A stretch of DNA of 64,000 bases from a virus. Shown in pieces: positions 31,607-59,411 of the stretch (position 1 is its first letter; the number at the start of each line of letters is the position of its first letter). The notes beneath the pieces were generated by a model. The model was not told where the DNA came from. It searched no databases and saw only the letters and a program-made list of their open reading frames with translations. The translations under genes and the position numbers were made by a program. Where the stretch lies: positions 2,287 through 66,286 of IMG/VR virus record IMGVR_UViG_3300037258_000368. One strand, written 5' to 3'.

Positions 31607-31608
31607 AA

Positions 31609-37190: not shown

Positions 37191-39983
37191 TTAATGGTGA
37201 CCGAAGAGACCACCCGATTCGGACCTTGTCGCCGTGTAGATGCCGGGAACGCCCCAAGGAACGCCCCCGCCGGGCTCATAGCCGAGCATCGTGCGGCCCG
37301 TCTCGCGCGCCAGGCGCCGGTTTGTCCGCTCCCACCAGCCGGGCGAGGCGGCATCGTAGAGGTGATACCAGACCAAATAATCGAGGGCGCCCTTCAGATA
37401 GATCAGGTTCGCGAACGGCACATGGCCGCTGGCGAACCGCGCGAGATCGGGCCACAGATGCGAGAGCGCTTTCTCGGGATGGTCCCTCAATTCGATCTTG
37501 AAATCGGTGTACATCCGATAGAGCCGATCGATATCGGACCCGATCGGCCCGACCATCGTCGCGATGCCGCCGCCGCCGAGCCGGCTCGTCTCGCCGAAAA
37601 GGAAATCGCCGTAAATCCCGAGGCCACCGCCTTGCGCCAGCGCGGCGAGCAGCGTCACCGGATTGCGGTAATCGCGCTGCGCGTTACCGGTCACAGCGTC
37701 ATTGACGGCCATCCGCAGCATACCGCCGGCGGTTGCCAGAGCGATCAGCGCGCCGATGTTGGACGCCATCTCCTTGCCCGATAGCGACAGCGCGATCTCG
37801 CGGCCCATGATCTGATTGGCCGCGGCGAGCGGCCACATCTTGAACTGCAACAGCGCCCGGGCGACCATGTAATAGGGGTCACCCGGTCGCAGACCACGCA
37901 GCGCCATCGCCTGCTCGCGCACGCCCGACGTGACGGCGCCACGGTCGGCTGCATCGTTCAGATACATCCCGAGCCGGTCGGCCATCTCCCATTGCTTTTT
38001 CTGTACCGCCGACAGGATGCGCGCAATCAGCGCCTCGCGCTGTGCGTCGGAAAGCGCCGGGTCATCGGGTGTCACGTTCGGCAGGAGGCCCTGCCGGCGC
38101 AGGAGCGCAGCGACCTCATCCGGGTCCGAGGCTATCGCATCGTGCGGCGTCACCCAGCGACGATCGCCGACGACCGCCGGGTTGGCCGCGCCGCGCACCA
38201 GATCCCATTCGTCCGGCCCGATCCCATAGCTGGTGAGAACGGTGCGCTGGTGGATCTCCATCTGCTCGAGTGGTGCATTGGCCGCGCGCCCGAGCCGATC
38301 CATCAGAACGCCTTTGACGCCGCCGGCCTGGAACCTGTCGAGCACCGTCGGGAGTCCGGTGACGCGCATGAATTGCGCCGCCCAGTAAGAGACAAAGCCC
38401 GGGACGCCAGCTCCGTGCATGCCGGCGTCACGCGCCAGCATATTGCTCCAGCCGTGCGCGTAGGCGCCGGCGTCGGCCATTGCTTCCTGTTCGACCGCGC
38501 CGCCGCGCCCGTGCACCAAGGCGCCGGTGAGGTTGCGTATCGTTTCCCAGCGTCCGACGCCATGATGCGCCATCTCCGACCCGAAGGTTGCCGGCGCCGC
38601 CGACATATGGGTGAGCGAGATTGCCCCGAGATGGGAAGCGGCCTCGATGCTCATCACTGCCTCGAAGGCTGCGGCATGGTCGGCGTTGACCGGCATGTTG
38701 AGCGAGCCATCGAGCCGCCCCATGACGTTGCGCAGCCCCTCGGCCTGGGCATCGAACCGTTGCAGCCCTTCATGGTCAGTCCTGAATTCCTCGCGCACCT
38801 TTTTGATGACGAGGTTGAGATTGGCCTCGGGATTGGTCCCGAAATAGCGCATCAGCGCGGTGCGCCGCGCGCCAGCGTCGATCGTGCGGTTGACCTGCGC
38901 CAGGAGCCCATCGCCACCGCCGAACTCGCGCATGTGGTCGAGCCAATCGCCTGAATTGTTCCAGTGCCAGATCCGCGGATGCGACACCGAACGCGCGATA
39001 TTGTGCGTACCCATGAACGCCGGCGGGATGAAACCGCCTTCATCGGCCGCCATGCCGGCCATGCCGGATTGCCGCAGATGGACGCCGCTCGATGTGGCAT
39101 CGAACCAGGAGCGCAGGAAACGCGTGCGCGCGTCGGCCATGCTCTCGCCTTCCTCGGGCACCAGGTTATTGAAGGTTTCGGCCGCGGCACGCGGCTCTTC
39201 CTTCGCTCGCCAAGCGCGGAACGCCGCGTCATGGGTGGCGCCCGGTCCCGCCGCGAGCTGCAGCTGCCGCGGATCCCAGTTGGTGTGGCTGACATAATCG
39301 GTTGCCGTGCCGATCCGGGCGCCTTCAGCGTTCTGGCGGCGCTTGATGGTGTCGACCGCCGGGTAGAGCGCATCGGCGATCGTCTGTCCGGCCGTCGATA
39401 TGGTGATCCGGGCGTCGGGCGCCCCGCCATTTCGGCGCCAGAAGGCCTCGGCGACCTCGCGTTCGAGCGAGGTCCCCTTCATTTCGCGGGCCGCGCCGAG
39501 CAGGCCCTCCTGCCGCAGGCGGTTGACCATCGCGGCGCTTGTGGCGCGGTACATGGTGTGCCACCGCGACTGGGCGTTGTCCTTCTGCTTGGCGCCGGCG
39601 ACCCAGTGCATCTGTGAGGCGATCCCGTCGGCGATCCCCAGATCCTTCGAGCCGCCGACGAGGGTATGGCCGATGCGCTGGGCAAGGTTGCGATCGGGCG
39701 CAAGCTGGCCACCCGATTCGGCCTTCGCCCGTGCGATCATCCCGACCCGACGGTCGGCATTGCGGATCGCGTCGACCAGGTCGGCGCGGGCCTTTTCCTT
39801 GATCCCCATCGCGGCGGCGCCGGCGGCCGCGACGATCGTGTCGAATTCTCCGGTGGCGCGCATCTGCTCGGCGCGGACCGCAACGTCTTCGAGGAGCTGC
39901 GCCGCCTCGGATTGCGTGATCGCGCCGCGCGCGGCGACCCGGGCGATGCAGGCTTCGATGTTTCTGCCGGTGCGTGCCATCAA
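37191..39983 (-). CDS. Internal virion (ejection) protein, T7 gp16-position
   Basis: 930 aa; LLQFKMWP..GGGLGIYGDFLF..PFANLIY..SPGWWER C-terminal pattern. Confidence 0.85.
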   Translation of the reverse strand: MMARTGRNIEACIARVAARGAITQSEAAQLLEDVAVRAEQMRATGEFDTIVAAAGAAAMGIKEKARADLVDAIRNADRRVGMIARAKAESGGQLAPDRNLAQRIGHTLVGGSKDLGIADGIASQMHWVAGAKQKDNAQSRWHTMYRATSAAMVNRLRQEGLLGAAREMKGTSLEREVAEAFWRRNGGAPDARITISTAGQTIADALYPAVDTIKRRQNAEGARIGTATDYVSHTNWDPRQLQLAAGPGATHDAAFRAWRAKEEPRAAAETFNNLVPEEGESMADARTRFLRSWFDATSSGVHLRQSGMAGMAADEGGFIPPAFMGTHNIARSVSHPRIWHWNNSGDWLDHMREFGGGDGLLAQVNRTIDAGARRTALMRYFGTNPEANLNLVIKKVREEFRTDHEGLQRFDAQAEGLRNVMGRLDGSLNMPVNADHAAAFEAVMSIEAASHLGAISLTHMSAAPATFGSEMAHHGVGRWETIRNLTGALVHGRGGAVEQEAMADAGAYAHGWSNMLARDAGMHGAGVPGFVSYWAAQFMRVTGLPTVLDRFQAGGVKGVLMDRLGRAANAPLEQMEIHQRTVLTSYGIGPDEWDLVRGAANPAVVGDRRWVTPHDAIASDPDEVAALLRRQGLLPNVTPDDPALSDAQREALIARILSAVQKKQWEMADRLGMYLNDAADRGAVTSGVREQAMALRGLRPGDPYYMVARALLQFKMWPLAAANQIMGREIALSLSGKEMASNIGALIALATAGGMLRMAVNDAVTGNAQRDYRNPVTLLAALAQGGGLGIYGDFLFGETSRLGGGGIATMVGPIGSDIDRLYRMYTDFKIELRDHPEKALSHLWPDLARFASGHVPFANLIYLKGALDYLVWYHLYDAASPGWWERTNRRLARETGRTMLGYEPGGGVPWGVPGIYTATRSESGGLFGHH

Positions 39984-42900
39984 ACCTCGCTCTCTCCGAT
40001 GCAGGCGGCGGCCTCATCGACGGCATCGCCGGTCCGGGCTTTCGCGGCGTCGATCGCCGCCTGTTCCTCCGGCAGGAGCTGGTCGCCGATCGTGTCGAGC
40101 CGCTGCAGCGCGGCGGTCAGATCGGGTTCCTGTCCCCAGAGACGCAAGAGCGCGGGATCTCGCGAGACCATCGTGCCCTCAGGGCCGATCGACGTCGTCT
40201 GCCCCGGCGCCAGGGGCGCGGTGCCGCCGGCGGCCGCCGGGGCTGCCGCCGCCGCTTGCGGTCCGGGCGGCGCATCTTCTGCGACCGGCGCCTGCTTGCC
40301 GCTGAGCGAGGCTTCAAGCGCGGCGACCTGCTGGCGCATCGGCGGGATCTTCGCCTCATCGACGAAGGTCTTGCCGATCTCGCGATTGCTCGATTCGGCG
40401 CGCAGCTCGGCGTTGCGGGCGCGCTCCTGGGCTCCCTTGAGGTAGTCAGGCAGGAGCCGCAACAAGCTGGAGGCCGAGGCGATCATGTTGGGCGCGGGGA
40501 CCATGCCGAGAGGGCGATCCTCGCCCGGCCAGAACTGGAGATAAAAATGGGGCGCATCGTCTTTTAGGGTGACGAGAAGCCCGGTAGGCCCCTTCACGAA
40601 ATGGCCTTCCGCATCGAGGGCATAGTGATTCTGTGCGGAGATCAATAGCGGGAAGCCGCCGATCTCGCCGATCTGCTGGGTCTTGCCAACATCGAGGCCC
40701 GGGTAGGTCGCGGCGACCGCCTTGTCGATCGCCGCTACAGCCTCCTCGCGTGTCGTCAGCACCTGGTCGCCGACCGTCACCTTGAAATTCTCGCCGGTGA
40801 TCTGATGGCTGCGCCCGATCGCCTCCTGCAACGCCGCTGCCGTGGCATGTTCCTTGGCGGCTTCCGTCGCGCCGCGTTGAGAGTCGATCTGGTAGCGGTA
40901 CTGCTCGCTGCGATGGGCGCTTTGCCGGCGCTCCAGCTTCTTCAAATCCTGCTTGAACTGCGCCAGCTGCATGACGCGCGGATCCGAGGTCGTCATCGCG
41001 GCGAGTTGGCTGTAGGTATCAGCTTCGCCCAGATCCTCCATTTCGCGCAGGTTCGGGTCGCCGCGGAAGAACTGCTCGATGAAACCGGCCTTCTTCGCCA
41101 TCAGGTTCCACATGAATTCGTCGAGCGAGCCCATCGTCGAATAATCGTGAATGTCGAGCGTGGGGTTGTGGTTGCCCTGCCGGAAGCCCCGCCCGTTGCG
41201 CTGCTCGTCGTCGGCCGGATACCACAAGGGATCGAGGTTATGGATTGCCCGCAGGCGCCGCTGCACGTTGACGCCGGTCCCCATCTTCTGAACCGAGCCG
41301 ACGAGGAGGCGCACCTTGCCCTCGTTCACATCGTTGAAGAGGCGCAATTTGGCGACCGGGTTCTCGAAATCCTTGATGAAGGCGATTTCGCTCGCCGGGA
41401 TGCCCATGCGGATCCACTCGCGGCGCATCCATTGATAGGAGGAAAAGACCGGCTCGCCCTTGCTGTTGCGCGTCCCGATGCCGCTATTGGCGAAGACCAG
41501 CTGCGTCGCCGGGCCACGAAATGACTCGTTCTTGAAATCTGTGGCTGGATCGTAGAATTGTGTGTCCCTGGTTTCGTCCCAAATGCGATGAACATTGGCG
41601 ATCATCATGTTGAGTTTGCTCGGGTCGCCAGCTGTCGCCGCATGCATGTCGACAAGGCGAGGATCGATCGCAGCCTTGCGGCCGTCGGAAAGGATCGAGA
41701 AGAGAATGTCATCTCCCTTTCCCGGCGGTCCCTTGCGGGTTTTGATCGCCTCGGCGCGGCGGGTAATATCGGCGCGGAAATCCTGCAGCCAATTGGTGAG
41801 CGGCGCCAGCCAGGGCGGCAGCCGGTTGTAGGCTGGCCGCGTCACATACTGCGCGAGATCCTTCGAGGTAACCACGTCCATCGCCGACCCGACCATCTTG
41901 TAGAGTTCGGGCATGTTGACGAAGGTGTCGAATCGGGTGGCATTTTTGTATTCGTTGGTAACAGTCGGTTCGAGTTTTGTCGTCGTCGTGCCGAATGCCT
42001 GTTTCCAGGCGTCGAAATGCTGGAGACCACGCTCGGCCAGCGCCTTCGGCTGGATATAGCGCGAGATCGAATAGAGTTCGCCCATCGTGTTGGTGACCGG
42101 CGTTCCCGATGCCATAACCAGCGAACGGCCGGGGTTCTGCTGATCGAGATAGCGGGACTTGGTGTAAAGATCCCACGCCATATCCGAGCCACCGCTCGAA
42201 TCGATGCCCTTCATCGGTGTGATTGTGGTGATCGGGAGTTTTCGGAACTGGTGCGCCTCATCGACGAAGAGGAAATCGACACCCAGCTCTTCGAACGTAT
42301 TGACCTCATCCTGCCGCGCTCGTGCAGCCAGCAGCTTCTGTTCGAGGCGCTGCTTCTGTGCCTGGAGCCGCTTTACGGTGAAACGGTCGTCGGGGTTGAC
42401 GCCCTTGGTGACCTTCTTCAGCTCGTCGGGGTTCTGACCAAGCTGTGCGAATGCCTCGTCGATCTCGTCGGTTGCCTCGCGGATCATCTGTGCGCTGAAT
42501 TCACCGCTGATCGGGATCAGTCCGAAGGCGGAATTGGTGATGACGACGCCATCGAGATCCTGCTGCGCGATGTTGGCGACGAACTGCTTTCTGACGCTTG
42601 TGTGGAAATTGCTGGTGTCGGCGACCATGATGCGGGCGGTCGGGTATTGCTCGTAGAATTCCTTGGCGAATTGCCCGAGCATGTGGTTCGGCACCACGAA
42701 CATCGGCTTTGCGACGAGGCCAAGCCGACGCATCTCCATCGCTGATCCGATCATGGCGCTGGTTTTGCCGGCGCCGACCGCATGCGCCATGTAGGTATTG
42801 CCGTCCTGGATGATGCGCGCGACGACGCGGGTCTGATGCGGGCGCCAGGACCAGTTGCTCGACACTCCCGGCGTCGTCAGATAGCCGCCGTCCCACTGGC

Positions 42901-45900
42901 GCAGCACGACACGGTTGAATTTGGCGTTGTAGAGTGTGGCGAGATCAACCGCCCGGGCCGGATCGGCCATTGTCCAGTCGGTGAAGGCTTCCTTCAGCTT
43001 GGAGACAACCTCCTGCGCCGCCTCCGTGGCTTCCTGGTTGACGTAAGTTGTCGTCGGCGGCCCGGGGTCGCGGTCGCGAATGACCGCCGACTTGCCGTTG
43101 AGGGCGAGTTCCAGCAACTCATGGGCGCCGAGCCGTTCGGTGCTCCACTCGGCCTGGCGCGGCCCATATTTTCCGTCTTTGTCGACCAGCCATTGCCCGA
43201 GAATTTCGGAAAATTGCAGGTTCGTGCGGCCCATGCCGATGTCGTCGAGGAAATTCAGAATGTGGCTGACCGGTATCCACGACATACCGAGGTTCATCGT
43301 GATCTCGCCCGGCGGCAATGGCGGCGGTTGCACCGCTTCGAGAGCCGACACATTGCGTTGTAGCCGCGGGTCGGCTTCGACCGCGGCACGGGCTTCCTCC
43401 AGTTTGGTGACAACATCGCCCGAGAGATAGGCATCGCGTATCACGTAGCTGTCCTGGGTGCCGGGCAGCCGCATGACCGCATCGCCTAATTCCTCGATAA
43501 CCTGGGGGCGCGTCACGCCGAGTTTCTTGGCGATGGCGTCGACATCGAGGCGACCGTGCTTATTCATCGACCACATCACGCCGTCATTGGCCGATTTCAG
43601 CTCCGGTTCGATGTAGCGGGTGAGGTTGTTCTCGAAAAAGATCCGGCGCTTCTCGGCAAGCCCAGTCTCCGCGTCGTAATCCTCGGCGGCGCTCAGGACG
43701 TAGCTCTGCTGATCCGCGCGCAGCGGGTCGAGGTTCGGCTGCTTGCGGGTCTCGATATCCGGCATGCCCGCCGGATCGAAGGTGCCCTCATCGAATTCGC
43801 GGCCGGCTTCTTTGGCGAGGCCGCGCGCTGTCTCGCGGGCACGAGCGATCTCATTCGCCTTCGATCCCATCGCGATCATGACGCCAGGATCGAAATCGCC
43901 CTCGTCAAAGTGCTCGCCGGCCGCGCGGGCTTCTTCGCGCGCCGCGGTGCGGGCGTTCTCCTGCTGTACGACATTGGGACGCCGGTATGTGAATTCGGTC
44001 TTATTGACCGGACCGTTCTTCGCAACAAAGGCGTCGTAGACCCGGCCCAACTGTGCGCGCGCAGCGGCGCCCGCCACCTCGTCGCCGGCAAGATTGGCGC
44101 GATAGACCTCGCGCATCGCATCCCGCAAGGGGACGAAATCGCGGATCAGATGGATTTCGGCGGCCGTCTTGCCGCCCTCGACGCCGGCACCGCGCTCGGG
44201 AACCGGCCGGCCGGCGCCCTGCGAATACTGCATGAGCCGGCCGTCCGGTGCGACGTAATAGGAGCCGTCCACTTTTTCGGTCGATGAGAAATCGATCGCC
44301 GCCTTTTCTTCGGGACTCAGCGGCGGGTCCATGACGCCCTCGGGCAACCGCGCCATTGCCTCGCGCAGCCGATCGGAAAGCACGGTGCCGGGTGTCTCGC
44401 CGACGGTGTATTCGTCTCTGCCAGAATTCATCTTGCCGGCGAAACTCTCGTTGCCGAGCACCATCTCGGGATGCTCGGTGAAGTAGCGGTTGACCGGCCC
44501 GGTAGCCGGTTCGCCGTTCTTGTCGGGGAGTTCGCGCAGCGCCGATTGGGTCCATTCGGGCAGCTCGTTGCCAAGATCGACCGGGGCGGCCCGCTTTTTG
44601 AAAAAGAGGATGTCGGTGGTGACCTCGGTGCCGGCATTGGCCTTGAAGGCGGTGTTCGGCAATCGCACGGCGCCGAGAAATTCCGCGCGCTCGGCAAGAA
44701 AGCGGCGTGCGTCGCCGTCCATCGAATCCATCGTGAAATGGCTCGTGATGAACGCGAGGAGGCCGCCAGGGCGCACGGAGTCGATCGATTTGGCGAAAAA
44801 GAAATTGTGGATCGAAAAGTTGCGGGCCGCATAGCGCGGATCGGCCTTGATCGCGATATTGCCGAAGGGCGGGTTGCCAATCGCCATGTCGAAATGGTCA
44901 AGCGGGACCTTGACGCGCGAGAAATCGCCCTGCCGGACCCCGCTCTCGGGGTATAGCAATTTTGCGATCTGCGCAGTGATGGCGTCGCGTTCGATGCCCT
45001 GGTAGCGCGAGGCCGCGGCGAGGTCACCCGGCATCAGACCGAGAAAATTGCCGATACCCATGCCCGGCTCGAACACCGAGCCACCCTTGAAGCCAAGGCG
45101 TTCGACCGCCTGCCACATCGAGCGGACAACCACCTCGGAAGTGTAGTGGGCGTTGAGGACGGAGGCGGCGGCGGCGCGATGCTCGTCGTCGGTGAGGATT
45201 TCTTTGAGCCGCGCACCGATCTTGTCGAGGCCGCCGCGGAAATTTCCCTTGGCATCAGGGAGAGCACCGGAGAGGCCGCCCCAGCCGACATAGCGGGCAA
45301 GGATCGCCTGCTGTTCTTTCGTCGCGGGCAAACCTGCGGCGGTCAGCGATTTGGCGAGTTCGATCGCGGCGATATTGTCGTTTGCCTTGACCCGCGGCGA
45401 GCGCGCTTCGGCGAGCGCGCCGGGTTCTATGACGTAATTTGCGCCTTTGACATCGGCATCTGGCGCGCGCTCGCCGGGTTCCCCGTTCCGCTCCCCGGCA
45501 GGTCGTCCGGTGACTCCAGGTGATCCGGGTCCGGCTTCCCCTCCGGCGGGAATGTTATCAGGGTGTCGAATACCAGCTCCCGCGCCCGCACCCTCTCCGC
45601 TGGATCCGGGTCCGGGTTCCCCTGCAGGATTTGGTTCAGCAGTTCCCGCGCCCGGCTGCTCACTTCCTTCAGGTGCTGTTGCCACTGGCCCGCGCGTTGC
45701 AGCGCCGCCACCATCTTCGGTGCCCTCTCCATTGCCGCCTGTGCGTAGGGTTCCCGGATGTTGAGTAGCATTTGCCGCGTCCTCGATTGCCCGGTCGATT
45801 TCCTCGGGCGTGGACATATTACGCGCTGGCTCGAAATCAGGATAGTGGCGCGCATTTTCGTAAAAGCCGCGGAGGTACGGTCGGATCGCCTCGCCGAAAT

Positions 45901-48900
45901 CGGCAACCATCTCATGCGCAAAATCGGCGAATTTATGTGCGCCCGCCTCGATATGATAGCCGGCGAGCGTCAATCCTGCTGCTGCGATTTCCGGGTCAAA
46001 CCCGGCATTGAGTTGCGAGCCGCCGAGTTTGGCGCGCAGGATCGCACGCGCTTTATCGGCGGCATCCTTGGTGAAGATTTTATTGCTCTCGCCGTAGCCG
46101 GCTTTTTCAGAAGCGAGCGGTCCCGCATCGGCAATACGGCGGCGGGCTTCGGCGATTGCCCTTTCGATTGTTGCCTTCTCGCTCGGCCCAACTTCGCGTT
46201 CTCGCAGTTCCTGCTCTAACGTATTGATCCGATCCTGTTCGCGGCGCGCGATGTCCGCTGGTTCGGATGTTGGGATAGCGGCGAGGCCCGGGTGTTCTGG
46301 CGAAGCAAGCGCAATCTCCCACTCGCCTTCCGTCAAATCGGTCAGACGCTGGATGCGGCTTAGATTTACCTGCGCCACGCCCTCCGGAATTGCGCCCTCT
46401 TTTACGAGGCGAGCGAGACCCGCAACAGCTTGCTGCGGCGTGACCTCTCCATTCAGGGCGTCGACCGCCCACTTGTTCGCTGATCTTTTCCCCGGATCTT
46501 CGAAATCCGCATACTCGTAGCGCGGTGTGACGCCTTCGGGCGCGATCTTGTATTCGGGATGCGCGTCGCGATCGATGCTCAGTTTCACCCCGTCGCGCGT
46601 CGGGGTCATGCCGACCGGCTCGGTCGTGCGCACGCCATTTTCCACGGTCGAGCGCACGCCGCGCTCGTCTTCGTAAAGGGTCTGGCCGAGAGAATTTTTG
46701 CCGATCTCTTTCGGCTCAGGCCGCGGAGCCCGTACCGCGGCTCCCGTGACGAATGACGGCAGCACGTATTTCGTGCCGGCGGGCGGTTCCATGACCTGCG
46801 GTGTCGGCGCTTTTGGCTTGGGCGGCGCCTTCGCCTTCCCTTCTGCTTCGCCTTCCGGGGGTTCCGGCGGCGCCGGCGGTGGCGGTGGCTTCGCTGCCTC
46901 GGCTTCGGGCTCGGGCGGCCCATAGATTTCGGCGGTCGCCTCGCGCAACTCCTCGGGCGGCACGCCGGCGACAAAGCCGTCGCGGCGCATCTCGGCTTGC
47001 TTCGCCGCGATCTCGGCCGGCGTCGGCGCTCGACCGTCCGGTGTCGGGAAGAACGCCTCGGTATCGACGGGTCGGCCATCGGCCAATTCCGCGACGCTGG
47101 CGCTGATCGCGGCGTGCTGGGTCTGCGCGTCGGCGTGGACGATCGGCGCGGCGGCAGCGGCTTTTCGTATCTCGTCCTCGAAGGTTATGCCGAGCCGTTC
47201 TTGTGCGGCTATGAAGGCGGCCTCGTTTTCTGGATTGTGGAAAAACGGAATTTGCCCGCCGATCGATTCCACACCGCTTTGTCGGGCGTATTCCTCGAAA
47301 AACTCTTCCTCGGTGACGCCCCGCGTCGGGATGCCCCGCTTTTCGCCGATCTCCTGCGCTTCTGCGTCGGGCTGCCACATGCGGGTTGTGGTCGACTCGG
47401 CTGCCGGCGAGCGCCGGATCGCCATCTCTGTCGAGACCTTTTCGGAGTGGCCTTGGGCGAGCAGGTAGGCTTTGACCTGTTCCTGCTCCGGGGTCAGCGG
47501 TACGGTCTCGGCGGCCGGGAGGGGGGGTCCACCCGCAGTCATGCTTGCCCGCCACTCCGCGGCTTGCCGCTCGAAATCCGCGACATCGTTGGACTCGATG
47601 ACGGTGCGCTGGCCGTTGATCTCGATGGTCGTGCGGAAGGATCTCGCCGGCGGGGCTGGTTCCGGTGCGGGCGGCGTGGTGGCCGGCGCTCCTTGGCGAG
47701 CATTCTTCCAAGCGTTGAATTCCGTCATATTGTCCATCGACGGAATACCGAGCGCTATCCTGGCCTCACGCACGAATTGAGCTGCGGCCTGTCGTTCCGA
47801 GTCGCCATTGGCACGCGCAACTGCCCGCACTTGATCGAGCCGGGGACCAAGTGCCTCCGCAATTTGGCTAGCGGTTTTGCCTTCGGCAGCAAGTCCTTCA
47901 ATGTTGCCAACGATATTGAGCCGGGTTGCTGTTGCATAAGAGCGCGCAACGTTCTCACGAACGAGATCGGCAACGGGGCCTGTGCCCGCCGGGATCACAG
48001 GCTGGCGGACCGCAGCAACGATGGGCGGCGGGGCGCCAGACGGGGGAGGAGGCGGCGCTCCTCCTGGCGGCGCTCCTCCTGGCGGCGCTCCTCCTCCTGG
48101 CGGCGCTGGCGGCGGCGCCGGCGCCCGCGCGACGTGCCAAAGATCCTTGATCGGTCCGGTGATCCCGGCATGGGTGAGCGCGGCCAGGCCGGCGCCCATC
48201 GCAGTGTCGAGGAGCGCCTCGCGCAAACCGTAGTCGCTGGCTTCCTCTTGGCCGAGGCCGTACTGCAGCGCGGCGACCGGCGCCATCGCCAGCGCGCCGC
48301 TTGCCGCACCGGCGCCCAGCCGCGCGACGGTGCGTCCGATGATCCCGGCCCCGGTCCGGGCCATGATCGCCTCTTCGCCGATGCCCGGCACAAAGATCGT
48401 GGCGGCCCGCAGCGGGTCGAGCATGAAGCCGAGCGAGCCGACGGCAAAATTGGTCGGCCAGGAATGAGCGTTTTCGAAGCGAGCGGTCACGTTGTCGCGT
48501 TCGATTTCCTCGCGCTTTGCTTCACCGATCAGCTTGGCGACCGCCTCGGGCAGCGGACCATCGCCAAGCGAGACCGGTTTGCCGTCATTGCCGAGTGGGG
48601 CGTAACGCTGCTGGTATTCCTCGTGCGGTAGCATCGGTGTCGGCTCGGAGCCGGGCGGCGGCATCTGGTCCGTGGTGCCAAAGGGCGCCGCGGCTTCCTC
48701 CTGCTCTCGGGTCATGCCGTAGAGCATCTGCGGAAGGATGCCGCTGCCCCGGTAGAGGCCTTGTGTCGCGACGCGGCCTGCCGAACGCAGGGTCGAACCG
48801 ACCTGCTCGCCGATCGACTCGCCGGCGGTCGAGGGGATGTCCTGGTAGGCGATATCCGCGGCCGCTTCGGGATCTTCGACCGGTTTCCCGTCCGGGATGA

Positions 48901-48919
48901 TATCGAAACCGCTCATCAA
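39980..48919 (-). CDS. Giant polyvalent ejection protein with DarB-like N6-adenine methyltransferase and SF2/SNF2 helicase
   Basis: MTase FEPGMGIGNF and GNPPF; helicase AVGAGKT, VDEAH, SGTPVTN, GTGVNVQ, QRNGRGFRQGN; ejection-protein-like termini. Confidence 0.93.
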   Translation of the reverse strand: MMSGFDIIPDGKPVEDPEAAADIAYQDIPSTAGESIGEQVGSTLRSAGRVATQGLYRGSGILPQMLYGMTREQEEAAAPFGTTDQMPPPGSEPTPMLPHEEYQQRYAPLGNDGKPVSLGDGPLPEAVAKLIGEAKREEIERDNVTARFENAHSWPTNFAVGSLGFMLDPLRAATIFVPGIGEEAIMARTGAGIIGRTVARLGAGAASGALAMAPVAALQYGLGQEEASDYGLREALLDTAMGAGLAALTHAGITGPIKDLWHVARAPAPPPAPPGGGAPPGGAPPGGAPPPPPSGAPPPIVAAVRQPVIPAGTGPVADLVRENVARSYATATRLNIVGNIEGLAAEGKTASQIAEALGPRLDQVRAVARANGDSERQAAAQFVREARIALGIPSMDNMTEFNAWKNARQGAPATTPPAPEPAPPARSFRTTIEINGQRTVIESNDVADFERQAAEWRASMTAGGPPLPAAETVPLTPEQEQVKAYLLAQGHSEKVSTEMAIRRSPAAESTTTRMWQPDAEAQEIGEKRGIPTRGVTEEEFFEEYARQSGVESIGGQIPFFHNPENEAAFIAAQERLGITFEDEIRKAAAAAPIVHADAQTQHAAISASVAELADGRPVDTEAFFPTPDGRAPTPAEIAAKQAEMRRDGFVAGVPPEELREATAEIYGPPEPEAEAAKPPPPPAPPEPPEGEAEGKAKAPPKPKAPTPQVMEPPAGTKYVLPSFVTGAAVRAPRPEPKEIGKNSLGQTLYEDERGVRSTVENGVRTTEPVGMTPTRDGVKLSIDRDAHPEYKIAPEGVTPRYEYADFEDPGKRSANKWAVDALNGEVTPQQAVAGLARLVKEGAIPEGVAQVNLSRIQRLTDLTEGEWEIALASPEHPGLAAIPTSEPADIARREQDRINTLEQELREREVGPSEKATIERAIAEARRRIADAGPLASEKAGYGESNKIFTKDAADKARAILRAKLGGSQLNAGFDPEIAAAGLTLAGYHIEAGAHKFADFAHEMVADFGEAIRPYLRGFYENARHYPDFEPARNMSTPEEIDRAIEDAANATQHPGTLRTGGNGEGTEDGGGAATRGPVATAPEGSEQPGAGTAEPNPAGEPGPGSSGEGAGAGAGIRHPDNIPAGGEAGPGSPGVTGRPAGERNGEPGERAPDADVKGANYVIEPGALAEARSPRVKANDNIAAIELAKSLTAAGLPATKEQQAILARYVGWGGLSGALPDAKGNFRGGLDKIGARLKEILTDDEHRAAAASVLNAHYTSEVVVRSMWQAVERLGFKGGSVFEPGMGIGNFLGLMPGDLAAASRYQGIERDAITAQIAKLLYPESGVRQGDFSRVKVPLDHFDMAIGNPPFGNIAIKADPRYAARNFSIHNFFFAKSIDSVRPGGLLAFITSHFTMDSMDGDARRFLAERAEFLGAVRLPNTAFKANAGTEVTTDILFFKKRAAPVDLGNELPEWTQSALRELPDKNGEPATGPVNRYFTEHPEMVLGNESFAGKMNSGRDEYTVGETPGTVLSDRLREAMARLPEGVMDPPLSPEEKAAIDFSSTEKVDGSYYVAPDGRLMQYSQGAGRPVPERGAGVEGGKTAAEIHLIRDFVPLRDAMREVYRANLAGDEVAGAAARAQLGRVYDAFVAKNGPVNKTEFTYRRPNVVQQENARTAAREEARAAGEHFDEGDFDPGVMIAMGSKANEIARARETARGLAKEAGREFDEGTFDPAGMPDIETRKQPNLDPLRADQQSYVLSAAEDYDAETGLAEKRRIFFENNLTRYIEPELKSANDGVMWSMNKHGRLDVDAIAKKLGVTRPQVIEELGDAVMRLPGTQDSYVIRDAYLSGDVVTKLEEARAAVEADPRLQRNVSALEAVQPPPLPPGEITMNLGMSWIPVSHILNFLDDIGMGRTNLQFSEILGQWLVDKDGKYGPRQAEWSTERLGAHELLELALNGKSAVIRDRDPGPPTTTYVNQEATEAAQEVVSKLKEAFTDWTMADPARAVDLATLYNAKFNRVVLRQWDGGYLTTPGVSSNWSWRPHQTRVVARIIQDGNTYMAHAVGAGKTSAMIGSAMEMRRLGLVAKPMFVVPNHMLGQFAKEFYEQYPTARIMVADTSNFHTSVRKQFVANIAQQDLDGVVITNSAFGLIPISGEFSAQMIREATDEIDEAFAQLGQNPDELKKVTKGVNPDDRFTVKRLQAQKQRLEQKLLAARARQDEVNTFEELGVDFLFVDEAHQFRKLPITTITPMKGIDSSGGSDMAWDLYTKSRYLDQQNPGRSLVMASGTPVTNTMGELYSISRYIQPKALAERGLQHFDAWKQAFGTTTTKLEPTVTNEYKNATRFDTFVNMPELYKMVGSAMDVVTSKDLAQYVTRPAYNRLPPWLAPLTNWLQDFRADITRRAEAIKTRKGPPGKGDDILFSILSDGRKAAIDPRLVDMHAATAGDPSKLNMMIANVHRIWDETRDTQFYDPATDFKNESFRGPATQLVFANSGIGTRNSKGEPVFSSYQWMRREWIRMGIPASEIAFIKDFENPVAKLRLFNDVNEGKVRLLVGSVQKMGTGVNVQRRLRAIHNLDPLWYPADDEQRNGRGFRQGNHNPTLDIHDYSTMGSLDEFMWNLMAKKAGFIEQFFRGDPNLREMEDLGEADTYSQLAAMTTSDPRVMQLAQFKQDLKKLERRQSAHRSEQYRYQIDSQRGATEAAKEHATAAALQEAIGRSHQITGENFKVTVGDQVLTTREEAVAAIDKAVAATYPGLDVGKTQQIGEIGGFPLLISAQNHYALDAEGHFVKGPTGLLVTLKDDAPHFYLQFWPGEDRPLGMVPAPNMIASASSLLRLLPDYLKGAQERARNAELRAESSNREIGKTFVDEAKIPPMRQQVAALEASLSGKQAPVAEDAPPGPQAAAAAPAAAGGTAPLAPGQTTSIGPEGTMVSRDPALLRLWGQEPDLTAALQRLDTIGDQLLPEEQAAIDAAKARTGDAVDEAAACIGESEV
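45427..45771 (-). CDS. Nested alternative-frame gene, TnpV-like helical protein (114 aa)
   Basis: GAGGA-8nt-ATG; amphipathic helical sequence; host frame is low-complexity over the same interval. Confidence 0.65.
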   Translation of the reverse strand: MLLNIREPYAQAAMERAPKMVAALQRAGQWQQHLKEVSSRARELLNQILQGNPDPDPAERVRARELVFDTLITFPPEGKPDPDHLESPDDLPGSGTGNPASARQMPMSKAQITS

Positions 48920-51900
48920 AATTGCCCCTGCTGATAGTCAACCGGGGCGTCTGGCACCTTGTCGGGCTTCGCGTTGAACGGCACTTCGATGAATCCGCCG
49001 TTGGCCTGTCGCACGAAACGGCCGCCGCTGTCCATGAGGCGGATCGATTGACCGACCGTGATCCAGTTCGGCGCCGCCTTGAGGATGCGCAGCCAATCGT
49101 CGCCGCTCACGGCCCCGGCGATGTCGGGCCGGTTAGCCAGGGAGAGTGGCTGCTGAACATCGTTGAGCGTCAGAGAATTGACGTATTGCTGGGCTGCGGC
49201 GCTGATCGCATCGACGTTGGAGCGCGGCACGCGGGCGCCGCCGTTCGGCATGAATTCCCATTTGCCGATCGCGCTCTCGACCGCATGATCGGCCGCCGCC
49301 GCCGGATCTTCGCCGTGGTAGAGCGCCTTCGCTTTCGCAAGGAGGCCGATCGCGGAGATGATGCCATCGACCTGGCGCGGCGACGCGCCGGAATTGAGCA
49401 TCGAGCGCTCGTATTGTTTGATGCTGTCGTCGCCGGCGATGCGCGTCGCGATCGTCATCGAGGGCTTTAGGGCGCCGGCGACTTTGGCGTCGAGCAGATC
49501 GTCGAGGGACTTGTTGACGCCGGCCTTGTTGGCTTCCGCCAAACCACGCGCGAGGAGCGCGCCGTCGCCCTCGTTGTCGAGCGCGCCGACCATCTGGTAG
49601 GCCGGCGGCAGTTTGCCGACGCTGACGATATCCCGCCAGACTTCCGGCCATGCTGTACCCCAGCGCTCTTGCATCGCTTTCAATGCCGCTGGTGCGTGTT
49701 CAGGGTCGGCCATGATCTGCTGCGTCGCTGACTGGGCCTGTGTGTTGCTCAGAACGTGGCGGCTGTCGGCGGGCACCTGAAGCCGCTCCTGTTCGCCAAG
49801 AAGCTTTGCGGCAAAGCTCTCGACGGCATCGGGGATGCCCTGACCGCGCAATTCGGCTGACTGCTCGAGCGTTTCTTTCGCCGTCGCCTCGCGCGCCGCC
49901 TCGACATCGGGGTTGGTCGCCAGGACGTAGGAGGCCGGATCTTCGCCCAGGGCTTTGATGTGCTGTTCGACGGCTTTGTCAAAAGCGTCGGCGAGCTTTT
50001 TCTGCTTCACGTAGCCCGGGCCGGCGCTGCGGGCGAGCACCGCTTGGTTGGCGGCGTGCTGCGTCGCGATTTCAGTCAGCGGCATGCCGCGCACCGCCTG
50101 CACCTGTTGACCGATCGTTCGGGCGTCTTCAAGATCGCCGATCATCTGATCGGCGTTTTCCTTCGGGAACAACCGGCGATAGGTGTTCGGGTCGTAATTG
50201 AACTCGCGGCCGTCTTGCAGCATCGCGACGCCGCCCTTGTATTGCGCCAGCGCCTGTGAGCGATCGGCCGAAGTCGTCTGCACCATGCGGCCGTAGCGTT
50301 GATTGGCCATGCCGTAGACGCGGCTGTATTGCTCTTCCGACAGCCCTTCGGGGATGCGGGCGAGATATTCCTCGCGGGTCGGGAAATTGGGCACCGGCGC
50401 CGTCATCGGGGTCGCCGGCGCTGCCGGCTGGCCGACAAGCTGATCGGGCGGTGGCGCTGCCTTCGGGTTGCCGTGGGCGTCGTACATCGACGCCTGCGCG
50501 TTGTGGAGCAGTGTCGCATAGGCATCGGCCGCGGCCGGCGTCGAAAACGTGCCGAGGTTCTCACCGGTCGCCTTGAAATGCGCTATCGCGTCCTCGTTGC
50601 TCAATCGGCCCGCCGGGTGACCCATCACGGTCGGAATCAGCACCTCGCCGGCGCCCGTGCCGATCGACATCGAACTCGTAGTGCTGTAGCTGCCATCTGG
50701 GTTATGCAGAACCGCCCGGTTCCAGGGATCGACATTCCCCGGTTTCACCATTCCGGCGGCATGCTGGGTGTCGAAAACCGGCGGGTTGACTTTTCCCGCT
50801 GCCGGTGCTGGCGCGGCGGTTGTCAGCGCGCGGATCTTCTCGCCCATCGAACTGTAGCCGTGTGGGCTCGGGTGCACGCCCTCGGTCGCGCCGACATCCT
50901 CAGCCGCAATTACCGGGACGCCCTGCCGCTTGGCGATATCAGCGAGCTCCGCGTTCTTCTCGGGGAATTTGGGGCCGTATCCGACCGCGATCACATTGGC
51001 GCCGTGCGCCTTCAGGTAATCGATCGTCTGCTCAACGACCGGCATCTGCTGACCGTTCGAGCCGGACGGCAGCACCACGGTCTTGCCCTGCCAATGATCC
51101 TCGGGCTGGCCCTTGATCGTGTCGAAGATGGTCTGCGGCGTGTCGCCGCCGTGGACATGCCCCGGCGCGCGCAGCGGTACATTGAGCCCGACGCCGAGGC
51201 TGTCGCCCCAGACTTCGAGATTTTGTGCACCGCCTTGGGCGCCCGGTGCAACATTCGGGGCTCCTGGCGCAACGCCCCGGTCCAACGCGTCGGCAAGCTG
51301 CGGAACGCCAGCGCGCGTGTAGGAGGCATCCTTGTGTGGGTCGCCACCAAGGTATCCGCGCAATGCGGCATTCCAGGTGCCCCCTGTCGCCTTCAGATCG
51401 GCGAGATAGCGCGCCGCCTGCGGGATTGCCTGTGTCGGATCGTCTGGGTCGAAGCCGCCGCGACTGGCGGCAGTCGAGGGCAGAAATTGGGCTATCCCCC
51501 GCGCGCCTTTCGGCGAGACCCCGGTCGGCTTAAAGCCGTTCTCGGCAAAAAGCACCCGCGTCAGCAATTCCTCGGGCACGTCGTATTGGGTCGCTGCACC
51601 GTTGATGAGCGGGGCATATTGCGCCGGCGCCTGCGGGAGCGCCGGAAGCGGGCCGGTTGTCGTGCGGGGACCCGTCGTGCCCGGAACCGCGCCGCCGGAC
51701 ATGCGATCGACGATCGCGGCCGCCTGCGCGCGATCGGCGTTGCGCTGCGCGGTAGCTGCGTGGCCGGCGAGACTGTACCCGAGCGAATCGTAATTCTTCG
51801 AGGTCGACAGGATGTCGGTGTGGTCGGTGTAGAGCTTCGTCGCAAGCGCCGGATTGCTGATCGCGGCCGCCTTAATGCGGGCCTCGGTGACATCGGTCAA

Positions 51901-52557
51901 CGCCTGGCGCTGCTCGCGCGCCATCAGCGCTGCCTGATCCGGCGTCAGTTGCGAGACATCCCGTGGCAATAATCCCGCGAGTTGCATTTTTTGGATGCGC
52001 GCGGAATTGGCTGTTGCCAAAGCCTGCGTCGCTGCCCCCTCGTCCTCGGGGTGCGTCGCGGCATCGGCAATCGCGTTCTGGTACCGCGTTTCACTGACCT
52101 GGGTACCCCAGCCTTTCGATTCGGTATCGTAGTGGGTGCCAATCTCTCCCTGCTGGCGGGCCATGAGATAGCGGGTCTGCTGGTTGAATTCGATCTGGCT
52201 GTCGGTGGTCATCCCCATGCCGGCATATTTGTCGCGTAGCGCTTTCAGCGCCGCGATGACTCCAGGCTGGGCGTCCATTGCCTCCTGGTTGTGCTTGCCC
52301 AGGTAGTCGGTCATTACCTGCTGGGATTCGTCCATATAGCCGGATGCAGCCTGTTGCCCGGAGAGCTGGCCATAGACGTGGCCGACCTTGAGGACATCCT
52401 GGCCGACCTTTTCCTCGGCCGCGCCGACCTGCGCGCCGAAATCCGCTCCGGACGACGCGATCCGCTCGTAATCTTCGGGCGGCCTGGATTGCGGCTCAAC
52501 ATTGGGGATGCCGCTCGCCGCCGGAATGCGCGAGGGTATGGTAAGAATCTGGGCCAA
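48916..52557 (-). CDS. Ejection protein with lytic transglycosylase (SLT), SGNH-like and a third inserted domain
   Basis: AENGF..SPKGARGIAQFLPSTA..AARYL..ALRGY; WGDSLG..GSN..EGVHP. Confidence 0.88.
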   Translation of the reverse strand: MAQILTIPSRIPAASGIPNVEPQSRPPEDYERIASSGADFGAQVGAAEEKVGQDVLKVGHVYGQLSGQQAASGYMDESQQVMTDYLGKHNQEAMDAQPGVIAALKALRDKYAGMGMTTDSQIEFNQQTRYLMARQQGEIGTHYDTESKGWGTQVSETRYQNAIADAATHPEDEGAATQALATANSARIQKMQLAGLLPRDVSQLTPDQAALMAREQRQALTDVTEARIKAAAISNPALATKLYTDHTDILSTSKNYDSLGYSLAGHAATAQRNADRAQAAAIVDRMSGGAVPGTTGPRTTTGPLPALPQAPAQYAPLINGAATQYDVPEELLTRVLFAENGFKPTGVSPKGARGIAQFLPSTAASRGGFDPDDPTQAIPQAARYLADLKATGGTWNAALRGYLGGDPHKDASYTRAGVPQLADALDRGVAPGAPNVAPGAQGGAQNLEVWGDSLGVGLNVPLRAPGHVHGGDTPQTIFDTIKGQPEDHWQGKTVVLPSGSNGQQMPVVEQTIDYLKAHGANVIAVGYGPKFPEKNAELADIAKRQGVPVIAAEDVGATEGVHPSPHGYSSMGEKIRALTTAAPAPAAGKVNPPVFDTQHAAGMVKPGNVDPWNRAVLHNPDGSYSTTSSMSIGTGAGEVLIPTVMGHPAGRLSNEDAIAHFKATGENLGTFSTPAAADAYATLLHNAQASMYDAHGNPKAAPPPDQLVGQPAAPATPMTAPVPNFPTREEYLARIPEGLSEEQYSRVYGMANQRYGRMVQTTSADRSQALAQYKGGVAMLQDGREFNYDPNTYRRLFPKENADQMIGDLEDARTIGQQVQAVRGMPLTEIATQHAANQAVLARSAGPGYVKQKKLADAFDKAVEQHIKALGEDPASYVLATNPDVEAAREATAKETLEQSAELRGQGIPDAVESFAAKLLGEQERLQVPADSRHVLSNTQAQSATQQIMADPEHAPAALKAMQERWGTAWPEVWRDIVSVGKLPPAYQMVGALDNEGDGALLARGLAEANKAGVNKSLDDLLDAKVAGALKPSMTIATRIAGDDSIKQYERSMLNSGASPRQVDGIISAIGLLAKAKALYHGEDPAAAADHAVESAIGKWEFMPNGGARVPRSNVDAISAAAQQYVNSLTLNDVQQPLSLANRPDIAGAVSGDDWLRILKAAPNWITVGQSIRLMDSGGRFVRQANGGFIEVPFNAKPDKVPDAPVDYQQGQF

Positions 52558-52558
52558 A

Positions 52559-53137
52559 TCAGATCACTGCGCCATTGGTGTTCTGGTAATAGCCGGAATT
52601 GCTGGTATCGGCGGTTGTACCGAGCCCGGACCATTTGAGGCCGATATTCGACGCGCCCGCCAGGAGCGAGCCACCGGCGCTGGCAAAGCCGGCCGTCGTG
52701 TCGAACCCGGCCTGAGCTTTAAGGAGCTGGGCTTGCGCAGCATCATTCGTTGATTCCGTGCGGTAGCCATAGGCTGTCAGCGCCGCGGCCTGCCGCGTCG
52801 TCTCGGTATCCAATTGGCCCTTTTCGGCGGCGCTGGTTCGCAGATCGACCGCGGAGCCGCTGTTGACATCGATCCCGTTGGCCGCGATCTCGGCCTTCAA
52901 ATGCTGCTCCTCGGCCCGCGCTTTAAACGCCTCGTTCGTCGCCTGCTGCTCTCCGGCCTTGATCGCGTAGGCGGCATTCTGATTCGCGGTGATCTGGTTA
53001 TTTGCAGCGACTTGGGCTTGATAGTTCGCCGAGGCAGCATTCGCTTCGCCGGTGCTGATCGCGCCGAGCGCAGATATGCCGCTGCCCGCGATGCCCGCAA
53101 CGGCAGATACAAGACCAAGATCAAGTCCCACGTTCAA
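52559..53137 (-). CDS. Internal virion protein (T7 gp14-like)
   Basis: Ala/Gly-rich; AANGIDVNSGSAVD; hydrophobic ends. Confidence 0.8.
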   Translation of the reverse strand: MNVGLDLGLVSAVAGIAGSGISALGAISTGEANAASANYQAQVAANNQITANQNAAYAIKAGEQQATNEAFKARAEEQHLKAEIAANGIDVNSGSAVDLRTSAAEKGQLDTETTRQAAALTAYGYRTESTNDAAQAQLLKAQAGFDTTAGFASAGGSLLAGASNIGLKWSGLGTTADTSNSGYYQNTNGAVI

Positions 53138-53591
53138 TCCTCAATTCTCGGTAGACGGCGCCGGCGATTAGCTGGGGATCGCCAACGGAGAAACCCGCCA
53201 ACGAAAAAAACCGGATGGCGCACTGGTAGGAGCAGGCGACGTGCGCGCGCAACACCTGGCGCGAACCGAGCATCATCCTGACTTCCTTTCGGGTCTCGCG
53301 CAGGAAAGCCAGTGGCAATCGGGCGACCGGCGCCGCCGTAAATGCCCATAGCGATCCGGTATCGCTCAAGAGCTGCGCGGTGTCGCCCCAGGCTGCCGCA
53401 ACTTCGCCATCGACGATCGCCACCCGCGGCGCGATCGACGCCCGCCACAGCGCGATCAGCGCATGCCGCGGCACGAGCCCGACCGCCTCGATCTCGGCGC
53501 GGTCCTCGGCACGCAGCGTCGCGCAAAGCGCGCGCACATGGGCGAGAGTACAAGGGCGGATTTCGTATCGCACCGGATCGGATGCTATCAT
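53121..53591 (-). CDS. GNAT-like internal virion protein A (T7 gp13-like)
   Basis: LRAEDRAEI..AAWG..W..V..Y..AIRFF..GF; position after nozzle. Confidence 0.8.
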   Translation of the reverse strand: MIASDPVRYEIRPCTLAHVRALCATLRAEDRAEIEAVGLVPRHALIALWRASIAPRVAIVDGEVAAAWGDTAQLLSDTGSLWAFTAAPVARLPLAFLRETRKEVRMMLGSRQVLRAHVACSYQCAIRFFSLAGFSVGDPQLIAGAVYRELRIERGT

Positions 53592-53629
53592 AGACTGCCT
53601 GCACACACGGGTCAGGGTAGGAGGGAAAG

Positions 53630-58062: not shown

Positions 58063-58315
58063 AATGAAGGCGCCGAGAGATGGGATCTATTACGGAACCC
58101 GCAAAGTGTCAGACGGATTTAACGGGGCAATCTTCTGCTACGAAAACGGCCGCCGAACGCGGAGATATTCGGTTTACCCCAGTTTCCCCACGGCAGCGGA
58201 AGCAGCGGACGTGGCCAAGTTCGAGGCAGAATACATAGCGATGGAAGGCCAAAGGGTGGCGCCGATGAATCAAAAGACTGAGCCATCGGCCCAGCCCGAC
58301 GCCTCCCAGCCGTAG
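58063..58315 (+). CDS. Hypothetical protein, antisense islet
   Basis: GGGGAG RBS; MKAPRDGIYYG..FPTAAEAA. Confidence 0.55.
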
Positions 58316-59151
58316 CGCAATACGCCGGGGCCTTCGGCGCCGCCCCAACCGAGCCCATAGCCGGGCGAGCGCGCCCTGATCCAATCGGCGACATGATCGA
58401 TCGACTGCGGGAACCCCGCCTCGTTGGCGTTTTTCAGCCGGGCGAGCGCGATGGCCCCTTGAGCAATCGAGATTTGCTGGGCGCGGTAGGAAAGAACCGC
58501 CTTCGGATCGGAAATCGCAACGGGCGCGAGTTTTGTGCCCAAGGCGTTGATGAACGCCTCGGCGAACATCGGGTCCCATTGCTCGATTTCGGCGACGAGC
58601 TTGGTATAGACCAGATGCGCGTTGGTGACGTTCGTGAGAACGATGCGGCGGGCGGTCAGGCCGACGCCTTCGGTCCCGGAGAAATCCGGCAGGCTGTCCC
58701 AATCGATCTCGCCGCTCATCAGCGGGAAATCTTCGCTGGTCGCCACGAGGAACCGCGCCGGCACTGAGCGCTGCCCGGGCCAACTCGTTTGCATATTGGT
58801 CATGATCGGCGGCGTCGGGGGCGAACCGACGAGCTGCTGCGGGAGCCAGCGCGCCGCGATGCCGTCGATCGGCCATGCATAGGCAAAGCACCAGGGCGGC
58901 TCGACCGCCTTCGAGATCGGCAACCCGGTTGCAGCGTCAAGCGTGTTGCCGGTGGCATCGGCGAGGAGTTGCAGAGGGGCGATTTTGCGGGCGAAGTTCC
59001 AATGTGCTGCACGTAGTATCTGACGCAGGACAGGCCCGTATTGGCGCCGCGCCGCTTCGCTGATCCGGCTTCCGTCGTAGATGTCCCCGATCGGCGGTTC
59101 GCCGAAGGCGTCGAGCGATCGGTTGACCATATCGGCCGCGATCTGGAACAT
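58270..59151 (-). CDS. Tail tubular protein A / adaptor, paralog 3
   Basis: DMVNRSL..HWNFARK..AYAWP..VLTN..WDPMF. Confidence 0.85.
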   Translation of the reverse strand: MFQIAADMVNRSLDAFGEPPIGDIYDGSRISEAARRQYGPVLRQILRAAHWNFARKIAPLQLLADATGNTLDAATGLPISKAVEPPWCFAYAWPIDGIAARWLPQQLVGSPPTPPIMTNMQTSWPGQRSVPARFLVATSEDFPLMSGEIDWDSLPDFSGTEGVGLTARRIVLTNVTNAHLVYTKLVAEIEQWDPMFAEAFINALGTKLAPVAISDPKAVLSYRAQQISIAQGAIALARLKNANEAGFPQSIDHVADWIRARSPGYGLGWGGAEGPGVLRYGWEASGWADGSVF

Positions 59152-59411
59152 CAGGAAGTGAGTTCCTTGACGTTCCACATGACGGCCTCTTCCAGCGCCG
59201 TGACGGATAGCGCTCTGTAGCGGCCGGGCTTGACCTGCTCGAAAAGGGCAAGGAGTTCCTCGGCCTTCTGCTTGATCGCGTCGTGCAGCGCTTTTTCCTC
59301 GGGCGTCATCGCTCGATAGCGCGGGCGAAACCGGCTGACAGCGATATCGCCGCCCTGCCGGTCATCGGGCTTGCCATCGAAGACATTTTCGGTTCGGCGG
59401 TCGTCGGCCAT
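59151..59411 (-). CDS. Acb2/Tad1-like helical-hairpin protein (putative immune-signal sponge)
   Basis: YRAMTPEEK..IKQKAEEL..GRYRALSVTALEEAVMW; AAGGA RBS. Confidence 0.75.
   Translation of the reverse strand: MADDRRTENVFDGKPDDRQGGDIAVSRFRPRYRAMTPEEKALHDAIKQKAEELLALFEQVKPGRYRALSVTALEEAVMWNVKELTS

Follow-up and report, generated by a model that had tools for sequence, protein, structure and literature searches.

We analysed a 64,000-nucleotide stretch of viral DNA (the window in the following), which covers positions 2,287 to 66,286 of the IMG/VR record IMGVR_UViG_3300037258_000368. Its minus strand codes for a 1213-amino-acid protein, a predicted internal virion (ejection) protein, which carries an SLT-type lytic transglycosylase domain followed by a compact SGNH-fold domain with a conserved set of catalytic residues. 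Modules of the same SGNH family adjoin a glycan-cutting domain, on either side, in at least 56 of 100 full-length relatives. At somewhat less than an even chance, we tentatively favour the reading that the SGNH domain removes the 6-O-acetyl group of N-acetylmuramic acid (MurNAc) in the manner of the bacterial esterase Ape1 and that the SLT domain then cuts the glycan strand, with both enzymes on one polypeptide; the activity, the substrate and the order of the two steps are the conditional parts of this proposal. A preliminary description, made from the letters alone, had placed the domain combination at positions 50823-51618, which correspond to residues 314-578 of the 1213-residue open reading frame, and every motif quoted in it was found there.

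The SLT and SGNH domains of the ejection protein

The lytic transglycosylase domain (SLT, family 1, GH23-type) comprises residues 317-408 (51334..51609; minus strand, as for all further features of this protein). It was recognised by Pfam family PF01464 with an E-value of 1.3e-12 and 47.7 bits against a cut-off of 21.3, which bears out the previously proposed SLT domain with a catalytic glutamate in an AENGF motif. This residue is Glu339 in the motif starting at residue 338 (codon 51541-51543); it is conserved in at least 90% of 17 homologues, and the GIAQF motif is located at residue 354. The domain is the sole SLT match in the phage genome, and the SLT half of an AlphaFold model of both domains resembles the lytic transglycosylases MltE, MltC and MltF of E. 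coli and Pseudomonas.

The esterase-like SGNH domain comprises residues 447-580 (50818..51219) and is, with about 134 residues, among the smallest SGNH domains. A word-based search for homologues yielded 17 proteins, and HMMER, run exhaustively against 1.84 billion representatives, yielded 95 at E<=0.001, of which 27 reached E<=1e-10 and 21 reached E<=1e-30. We based the conservation counts on 100 homologues, in all of which the hidden Markov model (HMM) of the domain recovered the SGNH domain. The putative nucleophile of block I (GDSL), Ser453 (51199..51201) in the WGDSLG motif at residues 450-455, is present in 99 of these domains, and the preceding glycine and aspartate in 99 and 98, respectively. 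The oxyanion-hole glycine of block II, Gly471 (51145..51147; GG at 470-471), is conserved in 91 of the domains. Block III (GSNG from residue 499) contains Gly499, which is conserved in 99 domains, and Asn501 (51055..51057), with an asparagine two or three positions behind the glycine in 98. Block V (E559-G-V-H562, 50872..50883, EGVHP at residue 559) provides the histidine, present in 99 of the 100 domains, and has a glutamate in the position of the usual aspartate. The catalytic-residue conservation spans identities of 24-75%. Because the block residues are conserved across 100 homologous domains, we conclude from the alignments that the SGNH-like motifs are not due to chance, and the earlier assignment of blocks I, II, III and V was therefore borne out.

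Three positions before the histidine (His-3), 54 of the 100 family members have Asp and 20 have Glu; nine further members carry an acid at His-2, and 16 of 99 have none at either position. Because both residues occur at His-3 in the family, Glu559 is a subclade variant of the canonical aspartate, in agreement with the replacement already pointed out in the preliminary description. Gly471 aligns with the GIGGDS block of the acetylhydrolase of platelet-activating factor (PAF-AH), as does block III with the respective block of the same enzyme.

A Pfam search with the whole protein yielded no significant match to an SGNH family. Searched with Pfam, the window's domain alone matched Lipase_GDSL_2 with an E-value of 0.041 (14.8 bits, cut-off 32.9), Lipase_GDSL with 0.062 (13.9 bits, cut-off 23.6) and SGNH with 0.14, and was matched better by the unrelated family PucR (E 0.008) than by the GDSL families. 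A phmmer search with the single sequence against the PDB sequences gave nothing significant, the best match being an alcohol dehydrogenase with an E-value of 0.13. Among 39 family members searched with Pfam at E<=0.1, Lipase_GDSL_2 was found in 12 (best 8.3e-06), Lipase_GDSL in 10 and VWA in eight; NCBIfam models returned only scattered unrelated families for the same 39. A profile built from 39 diverse domains and compared with the PDB sequences retrieved SGNH-type proteins in all of its best 13 rows, every one with an E-value weaker than 0.001. These rows include PAF-AH (E 0.0064), Bacteroides acylhydrolases and the entries 5ufy and 5ug1, the former of which is identified as the C-terminal domain of the O-acetyltransferase OatA (OatA-C) in a section of PMC5697884.

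The AlphaFold2 (AF2) model of the SGNH domain, which was calculated from an alignment of 39 domains, has a predicted local distance difference test score (pLDDT) of 90.9 and a predicted template modelling score (pTM) of 0.87 and shows strands alternating with helices. Ser453 is placed where helix 1 begins, behind strand 1. Comparison with the PDB by Foldseek returned 71 matches with E<=0.001; the best 40 of these are GDSL/SGNH esterases, TesA, PAF acetylhydrolase, OatA-C and PatB, except for one designed scaffold and two entries with uninformative names. The highest-ranking structure under both normalisations is OatA-C of Staphylococcus aureus (6vjp, a target of 155 residues; TMq 0.70, TMt 0.67), with a sequence identity of 18-20%. 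The preliminary description had staked its case on the fold and named a non-SGNH fold as the outcome that would overturn it; the AF2 model and the Foldseek matches agree on the three-layer alpha/beta/alpha arrangement of SGNH proteins, which has a parallel sheet at its centre. Modelling thus confirmed residues 447-580 as a predicted SGNH fold with a complete catalytic set.

The two domains are connected by a flexible linker rich in Gly, Ala and Pro, which comprises about 13 residues (approximately 434-446; 51220..51258) and is modelled with low confidence. In an AF2 model of residues 297-585, which reached a mean pLDDT of 89.6 and a pTM of 0.62, the values fell below 50 at model residues 138-146, corresponding to residues 434-442 of the protein. 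Foldseek found no PDB chain spanning both the SLT and the SGNH half, the best TMq being 0.43. Because of the pTM of 0.62, the disordered linker and the lack of a PDB chain over both halves, we rejected a rigid two-domain enzyme and read the model as two enzymes on a flexible tether, like beads on a string.

A third region follows the SGNH domain at residues 586-705 (50443-50802, minus strand; GNVDPWNR ... IPTV ...). It has no Pfam match and is without conservation among the 17 closest homologues; its look-alikes in a protein atlas, which we take as a lead only, are exclusively viral hypothetical proteins of 94-121 amino acids (score 0.88).

Relatives of the SGNH module and their partner domains

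Pfam searches of the 100 full-length relatives at E<=0.001, in which several families may overlap within one protein, recognised SLT in 35, Phage_lysozyme2 in 16, SLT_2 in five and Transglycosylas in three proteins, and SLT_3, Amidase_2, PG_binding_1, PhageMin_Tail and Tape_meas_lam_C in one each. With a local HMM that was started from the SLT domain of the window and then iterated, an SLT-like domain was detected in 56 of the 100 relatives and in none of the other 44. It is located upstream of the SGNH domain in 49 relatives, with a gap of 2-263 residues (at most 111 in 48 of the 49), and downstream in seven, with a gap of 2-110 residues. In 17 of the 100 relatives, the SGNH domain begins within the first 66 residues, and these proteins may be fragments or stand-alone forms.

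Six related loci were found in IMG/VR, one of which (L007) carries the module in a 1934-amino-acid protein followed by a giant methylase-type protein, as in the window. The window's own SGNH domain gave no match when compared by tblastn with 50,697 phage records, and scanning bacterial genome contigs with the alignment of 17 proteins and with the portal protein yielded no confirmed relative. A more typical member of the family (P0083) had matches in five phage records whose hosts are named. In a Mu-like prophage of Helicobacter pametensis (L009:4429-7107), the module starts at residue 527 of an 892-amino-acid protein in tape-measure position, and a GH24 phage lysozyme (residues 674-800) comes directly after it; Helicobacter O-acetylates its wall. 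The two records of Synechococcus phage S-H38 contain it in a 1196-amino-acid protein encoded near baseplate hub genes. Another carrier is the Salmonella Kuttervirus SeF6a (L010:4941-5366), whose gene sits between those for a 'baseplate tail tube cap' and a 'baseplate wedge subunit' and whose product clearly belongs to the family according to a comparison of profiles (hhalign 98.9%, E 1.4e-17). Names such as 'SGNH_hydrolase domain containing protein' exist in databases for proteins of uncultured phages and stem from automatic annotation.

Proposed function and alternative explanations

According to our preferred reading, the phage would deliver the 1213-residue protein into the periplasm of its host at infection, and the middle part of the protein would represent a two-enzyme wall-opening unit with the SLT domain first and the linker-tethered SGNH domain second. 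The latter would be a minimal serine esterase working in an Ape1-like manner, with Ser453 as nucleophile, Gly471 and Asn501 forming the oxyanion hole and His562 polarised by Glu559. It would hydrolyse the 6-O-acetyl ester of MurNAc, the group that blocks lytic transglycosylases, and the tethered cutter would then make a local opening for the DNA channel. We propose 6-O-acetyl-MurNAc as the substrate because at least 56 of 100 relatives have a glycan-cutting partner next to the module and because there is a bacterial precedent in Ape1 and the lytic transglycosylase LtgA. As stated in parts of PMC7083599 and in the abstract of 10.1101/2021.09.23.461501, 6-O-acetylation of MurNAc blocks lytic transglycosylases, Ape1 strips off the acetyl group so that these enzymes can act, and the two enzymes Ape1 and LtgA enhance each other's activity when joined in a complex.

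Several observations weigh against this reading. All matches of the domain to SGNH sequence models stayed below the curated cut-offs, and the profile search retrieved no Ape1 chain among 30 PDB sequences at E<=10. Of the three enzymes with which the preliminary description had proposed to compare the fold, OatA-C and PatB were indeed matched by Foldseek, and Ape1 was not among the best 40 of the 71 matches; the lowest E-values were obtained with the lipolytic enzymes EstL5 (5.8e-06) and TesA/thioesterase I (1.4e-05). The pTM of 0.62 gives no confident fixed orientation between the two domains. In phages that infect Gram-negative hosts, most virion-associated wall enzymes cut glycans in any case, and the partner tally may therefore partly reflect this base rate and be weaker evidence than it looks. 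In the carrier protein of phage S-H38, the only wall enzyme recognised by Pfam is an M15 peptidase about 290 residues off. The SeF6a member is a stand-alone protein of 141 amino acids with a signal-peptide-like N-terminus and is annotated as 'putative lipase'; Salmonella is not known to O-acetylate its peptidoglycan. An E. coli phage record also matches the more typical family member, and E. coli is named, in a passage of PMC7083599, as a species without O-acetylated peptidoglycan. We found no paper on Kuttervirus together with lipase in a full-text literature search.

A second explanation is possible and takes the next place in our estimate after removal of acetyl groups from MurNAc: the domain may be an active SGNH esterase acting on another ester of the envelope, whose hydrolysis would loosen the membrane or the glycan layer for the ejection channel. 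Candidates are (lyso)phospholipids of the outer or inner membrane, the acyl chains of lipid A or lipoproteins, and O-acetyl groups of polysaccharides other than peptidoglycan. The lipolytic enzymes at the top of the Foldseek E-values, the absence of Ape1 from the sequence matches listed and from the best 40 of the 71 fold matches, the Kuttervirus 'putative lipase' encoded between baseplate genes of phages infecting Salmonella or E. coli, and the statement on E. coli peptidoglycan cited above (PMC7083599) all argue for it, as does the precedent that known phage SGNH domains, e.g. that of G7C gp63.1, deacetylate surface polysaccharides, as described in parts of PMC6027278. Those deacetylases, however, are located in external tailspikes according to the same parts of that source, whereas the domain described here is part of an internal ejection protein. 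A module that adjoins a peptidoglycan glycan cutter in at least 56 of 100 relatives would be unexpected for a membrane lipase, and a domain of about 134 residues should leave no room for the usual insertions forming an acyl-chain pocket.

The remaining explanations differ in what they make of the fold and of the catalytic residues. An O-acetyltransferase resembling OatA-C or PatB, which would acetylate peptidoglycan, e.g. to protect the wall of the infected cell or to exclude other phages, is suggested by the best size-matched structural neighbour, the S. aureus OatA-C, by the matching PatB structures and by PF19040, a family of SGNH domains fused to AT3, which touched two of the 39 members at E<=0.1. 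Furthermore, five of the 100 members contain V-G-R in block II, fitting the (V/I)(G/S)(R/V) motif that a section of PMC5697884 gives for OatA. Nevertheless, block II of the window's domain reads G-G-D as in the hydrolase PAF-AH and thus differs from the OatA motif, and a virion protein released into the periplasm would be without an obvious acetyl donor. Neither AT3 (PF01757) nor MBOAT (PF03062) was found in the protein or, in searches with positive controls, in the complete phage genome. Because the phage encodes no such acetyl-donor partner, hydrolysis is much more probable than transfer, and we consider a transferase very improbable. It is hardly more probable that the module is catalytically silent and that its role in the ejection protein is that of a spacer or of a binding element. 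The 16 of 99 members without an acid at His-3 or His-2 would fit such a role, but Ser-His dyads lacking the acid are known among SGNH enzymes, which we count against it, and the presence of Ser, His, the block II Gly and the block III Asn in 91-99 of 100 members over 24-75% identity is hard to explain without catalysis. The least probable explanation is a Rossmann-like alpha/beta domain of another type, e.g. VWA-like, with coincidental motifs. It draws on the VWA matches in eight of 39 members (best 6.2e-04), on the score with PucR, which is better than those with the GDSL families, and on NCBIfam results consisting of noise. The Foldseek matches are consistently SGNH proteins, however, the order of the four signature blocks and their positions in the secondary structure are as expected, and the GDSL lipase families were recognised in 12 and 10 of the 39 members with the E-values given above.

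Some elements of the proposed de-O-acetylating and cutting unit are already known, namely SGNH esterases, Ape1, OatA-C, ejection proteins bearing lytic transglycosylase domains and the SGNH deacetylases of tailspikes. New is a compact subfamily that is missed by the Pfam cut-offs and recurs beside glycan cutters in phage penetration proteins. No paper on a fusion of lytic transglycosylase and SGNH domains in a phage virion protein was found in the full-text literature searched, and the terms SGNH, O-acetyl and deacetyl occur 0 times in a 2018 review of phage enzymes acting on cell barriers. O-acetylation of peptidoglycan is known to defend against lysozyme and to control the lytic transglycosylases of the cell itself; its role as a hindrance to phage entry, and a phage response to it, are not addressed in the literature searched. 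A wider and rather doubtful generalisation is that the compact SGNH module represents a common accessory of phage penetration devices, i.e. of podovirus ejection proteins, proteins in tape-measure position and baseplate-region proteins, which removes the 6-O-acetyl group of MurNAc for a neighbouring glycan cutter, so that O-acetylation would act as an entry barrier and the module as the counter-measure.

With both domains contained in about 290 residues, the unit offers a small, soluble-looking and easily mutated test object, and its family, which comprises about 100 representative clusters, shows the pairing of SGNH and glycan-cutting domains repeatedly. If the esterase acts on O-acetylated peptidoglycan, an extra step would have to be added to the model of genome ejection, and the enzyme might become a partner in lysin cocktails against bacteria with muramidase-resistant walls. 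If it is a lipase instead, the domain would point to membrane remodelling by ejection proteins.

Genomic setting and comparison with known systems

The virus record that holds the window consists of 66,286 bases with direct terminal repeats and is rated 100% complete. Its gene repertoire includes a major head protein, a portal, a large terminase and tail proteins, and it represents a complete 66-kb podophage. Its portal shares an identity of only about 34% with the portals of podophages that are epsilon15-like or infect Caulobacter. The gene of the ejection protein (P0001) occupies positions 48916..52557 on the minus strand and starts with TTG. Its product matches phrog_342, 'internal virion protein with endolysin domain', with an E-value of 5.2e-20, and phrog_2013, 'lytic tail protein', with 3.6e-18. 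Directly upstream are two small genes on the same strand (52559-53137 and 53121-53606), whose products match the families phrog_418 (E 1.8e-21) and phrog_308 (E 2.3e-17), both named 'internal virion protein', and a gene for a 1027-amino-acid tail protein of phrog_376 (tail tube) is also located upstream. These family matches and the gene order support the assignment of the 1213-residue protein to the ejection-protein class and agree with the 'ejectosome' setting envisaged in the preliminary description.

Downstream of the ejection protein gene, a 2979-amino-acid protein with methylase and helicase motifs is encoded on the minus strand (39980..48919), and the start of its reading frame overlaps the stop of the former gene by four bases. 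Pfam recognised Eco57I (methylase, E 2.8e-06) and ResIII (helicase, E 1.1e-05), and the protein contains long stretches rich in Pro, Ala and Gly. It appears to be a DNA-modifying or anti-restriction protein that is co-ejected. No endolysin was recognised, the SLT domain of the ejection protein being the single hit among six common Pfam families. Pfam found no match to the endolysin families GH24, Amidase_2 and Peptidase_M15_4 in the phage genome; GH19 and GH108 gave no match either, which is uninformative, as the control genomes were silent for them too. Elsewhere in the window, two tRNA-Gln genes with the anticodons TTG and CTG lie two bases apart on the plus strand (31530-31682). Three consecutive reading frames on the minus strand (58270-59178, 59426-60067 and 60064-60654) each match the tail-protein family phrog_394, which suggests that they are tandem paralogues.

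Compared to known systems, the phage domain shares its fold with TesA/TAP of E. coli and PAF acetylhydrolase Ib, which gave the best sequence-profile matches, and its block II reads G-G-D as in PAF-AH. These enzymes, which have 178-232 residues, hydrolyse lipids or thioesters in the cell and have no link to wall enzymes. The best size-matched structural neighbour is the C-terminal SGNH domain of OatA (6vjp, 6wn9, 5ufy). In the parts of PMC5697884 dealing with it, OatA-C is described as a minimal version of the SGNH fold whose shallow active site deals with MurNAc's 6-O-acetyl group, and its esterase activity is given as 45- to 252-fold below that of Ape. In contrast to the phage protein, which is without an AT3 or MBOAT partner, it is joined to an AT3 domain in the membrane, and its reaction is the transfer of acetyl groups to peptidoglycan.

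The lytic transglycosylase ejection proteins of the T7 gp16 type (PHROG 342) also carry an SLT domain and are likewise accompanied by genes for small internal virion and tail tube proteins. Their family description does not include an appended SGNH domain, and the match to it covers residues 309-411 of the 1213-residue protein only. Ape1 of Neisseria and Campylobacter is a periplasmic SGNH serine esterase with a Ser-His-acid triad, a feature shared by the phage domain as predicted, and in our preferred reading both would de-O-acetylate C6 of MurNAc so that a lytic transglycosylase can cut. Unlike in the bacterial system, the predicted esterase and lytic transglycosylase are combined here on one phage virion polypeptide, and the esterase domain comprises only about 134 residues with Glu as the acid. 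Ape1 is furthermore described as carrying a CBM35 module, for which Pfam gave no match in the 1213-residue protein at E<=1. Finally, the SGNH domains of tailspikes such as gp63.1 of phage G7C resemble the domain in being virion-borne esterases used in infection, as outlined in parts of PMC6027278. They belong to external receptor-binding spikes and act on O-antigen or capsule, whereas the domain described here is part of an internal protein and stands beside a peptidoglycan cutter.

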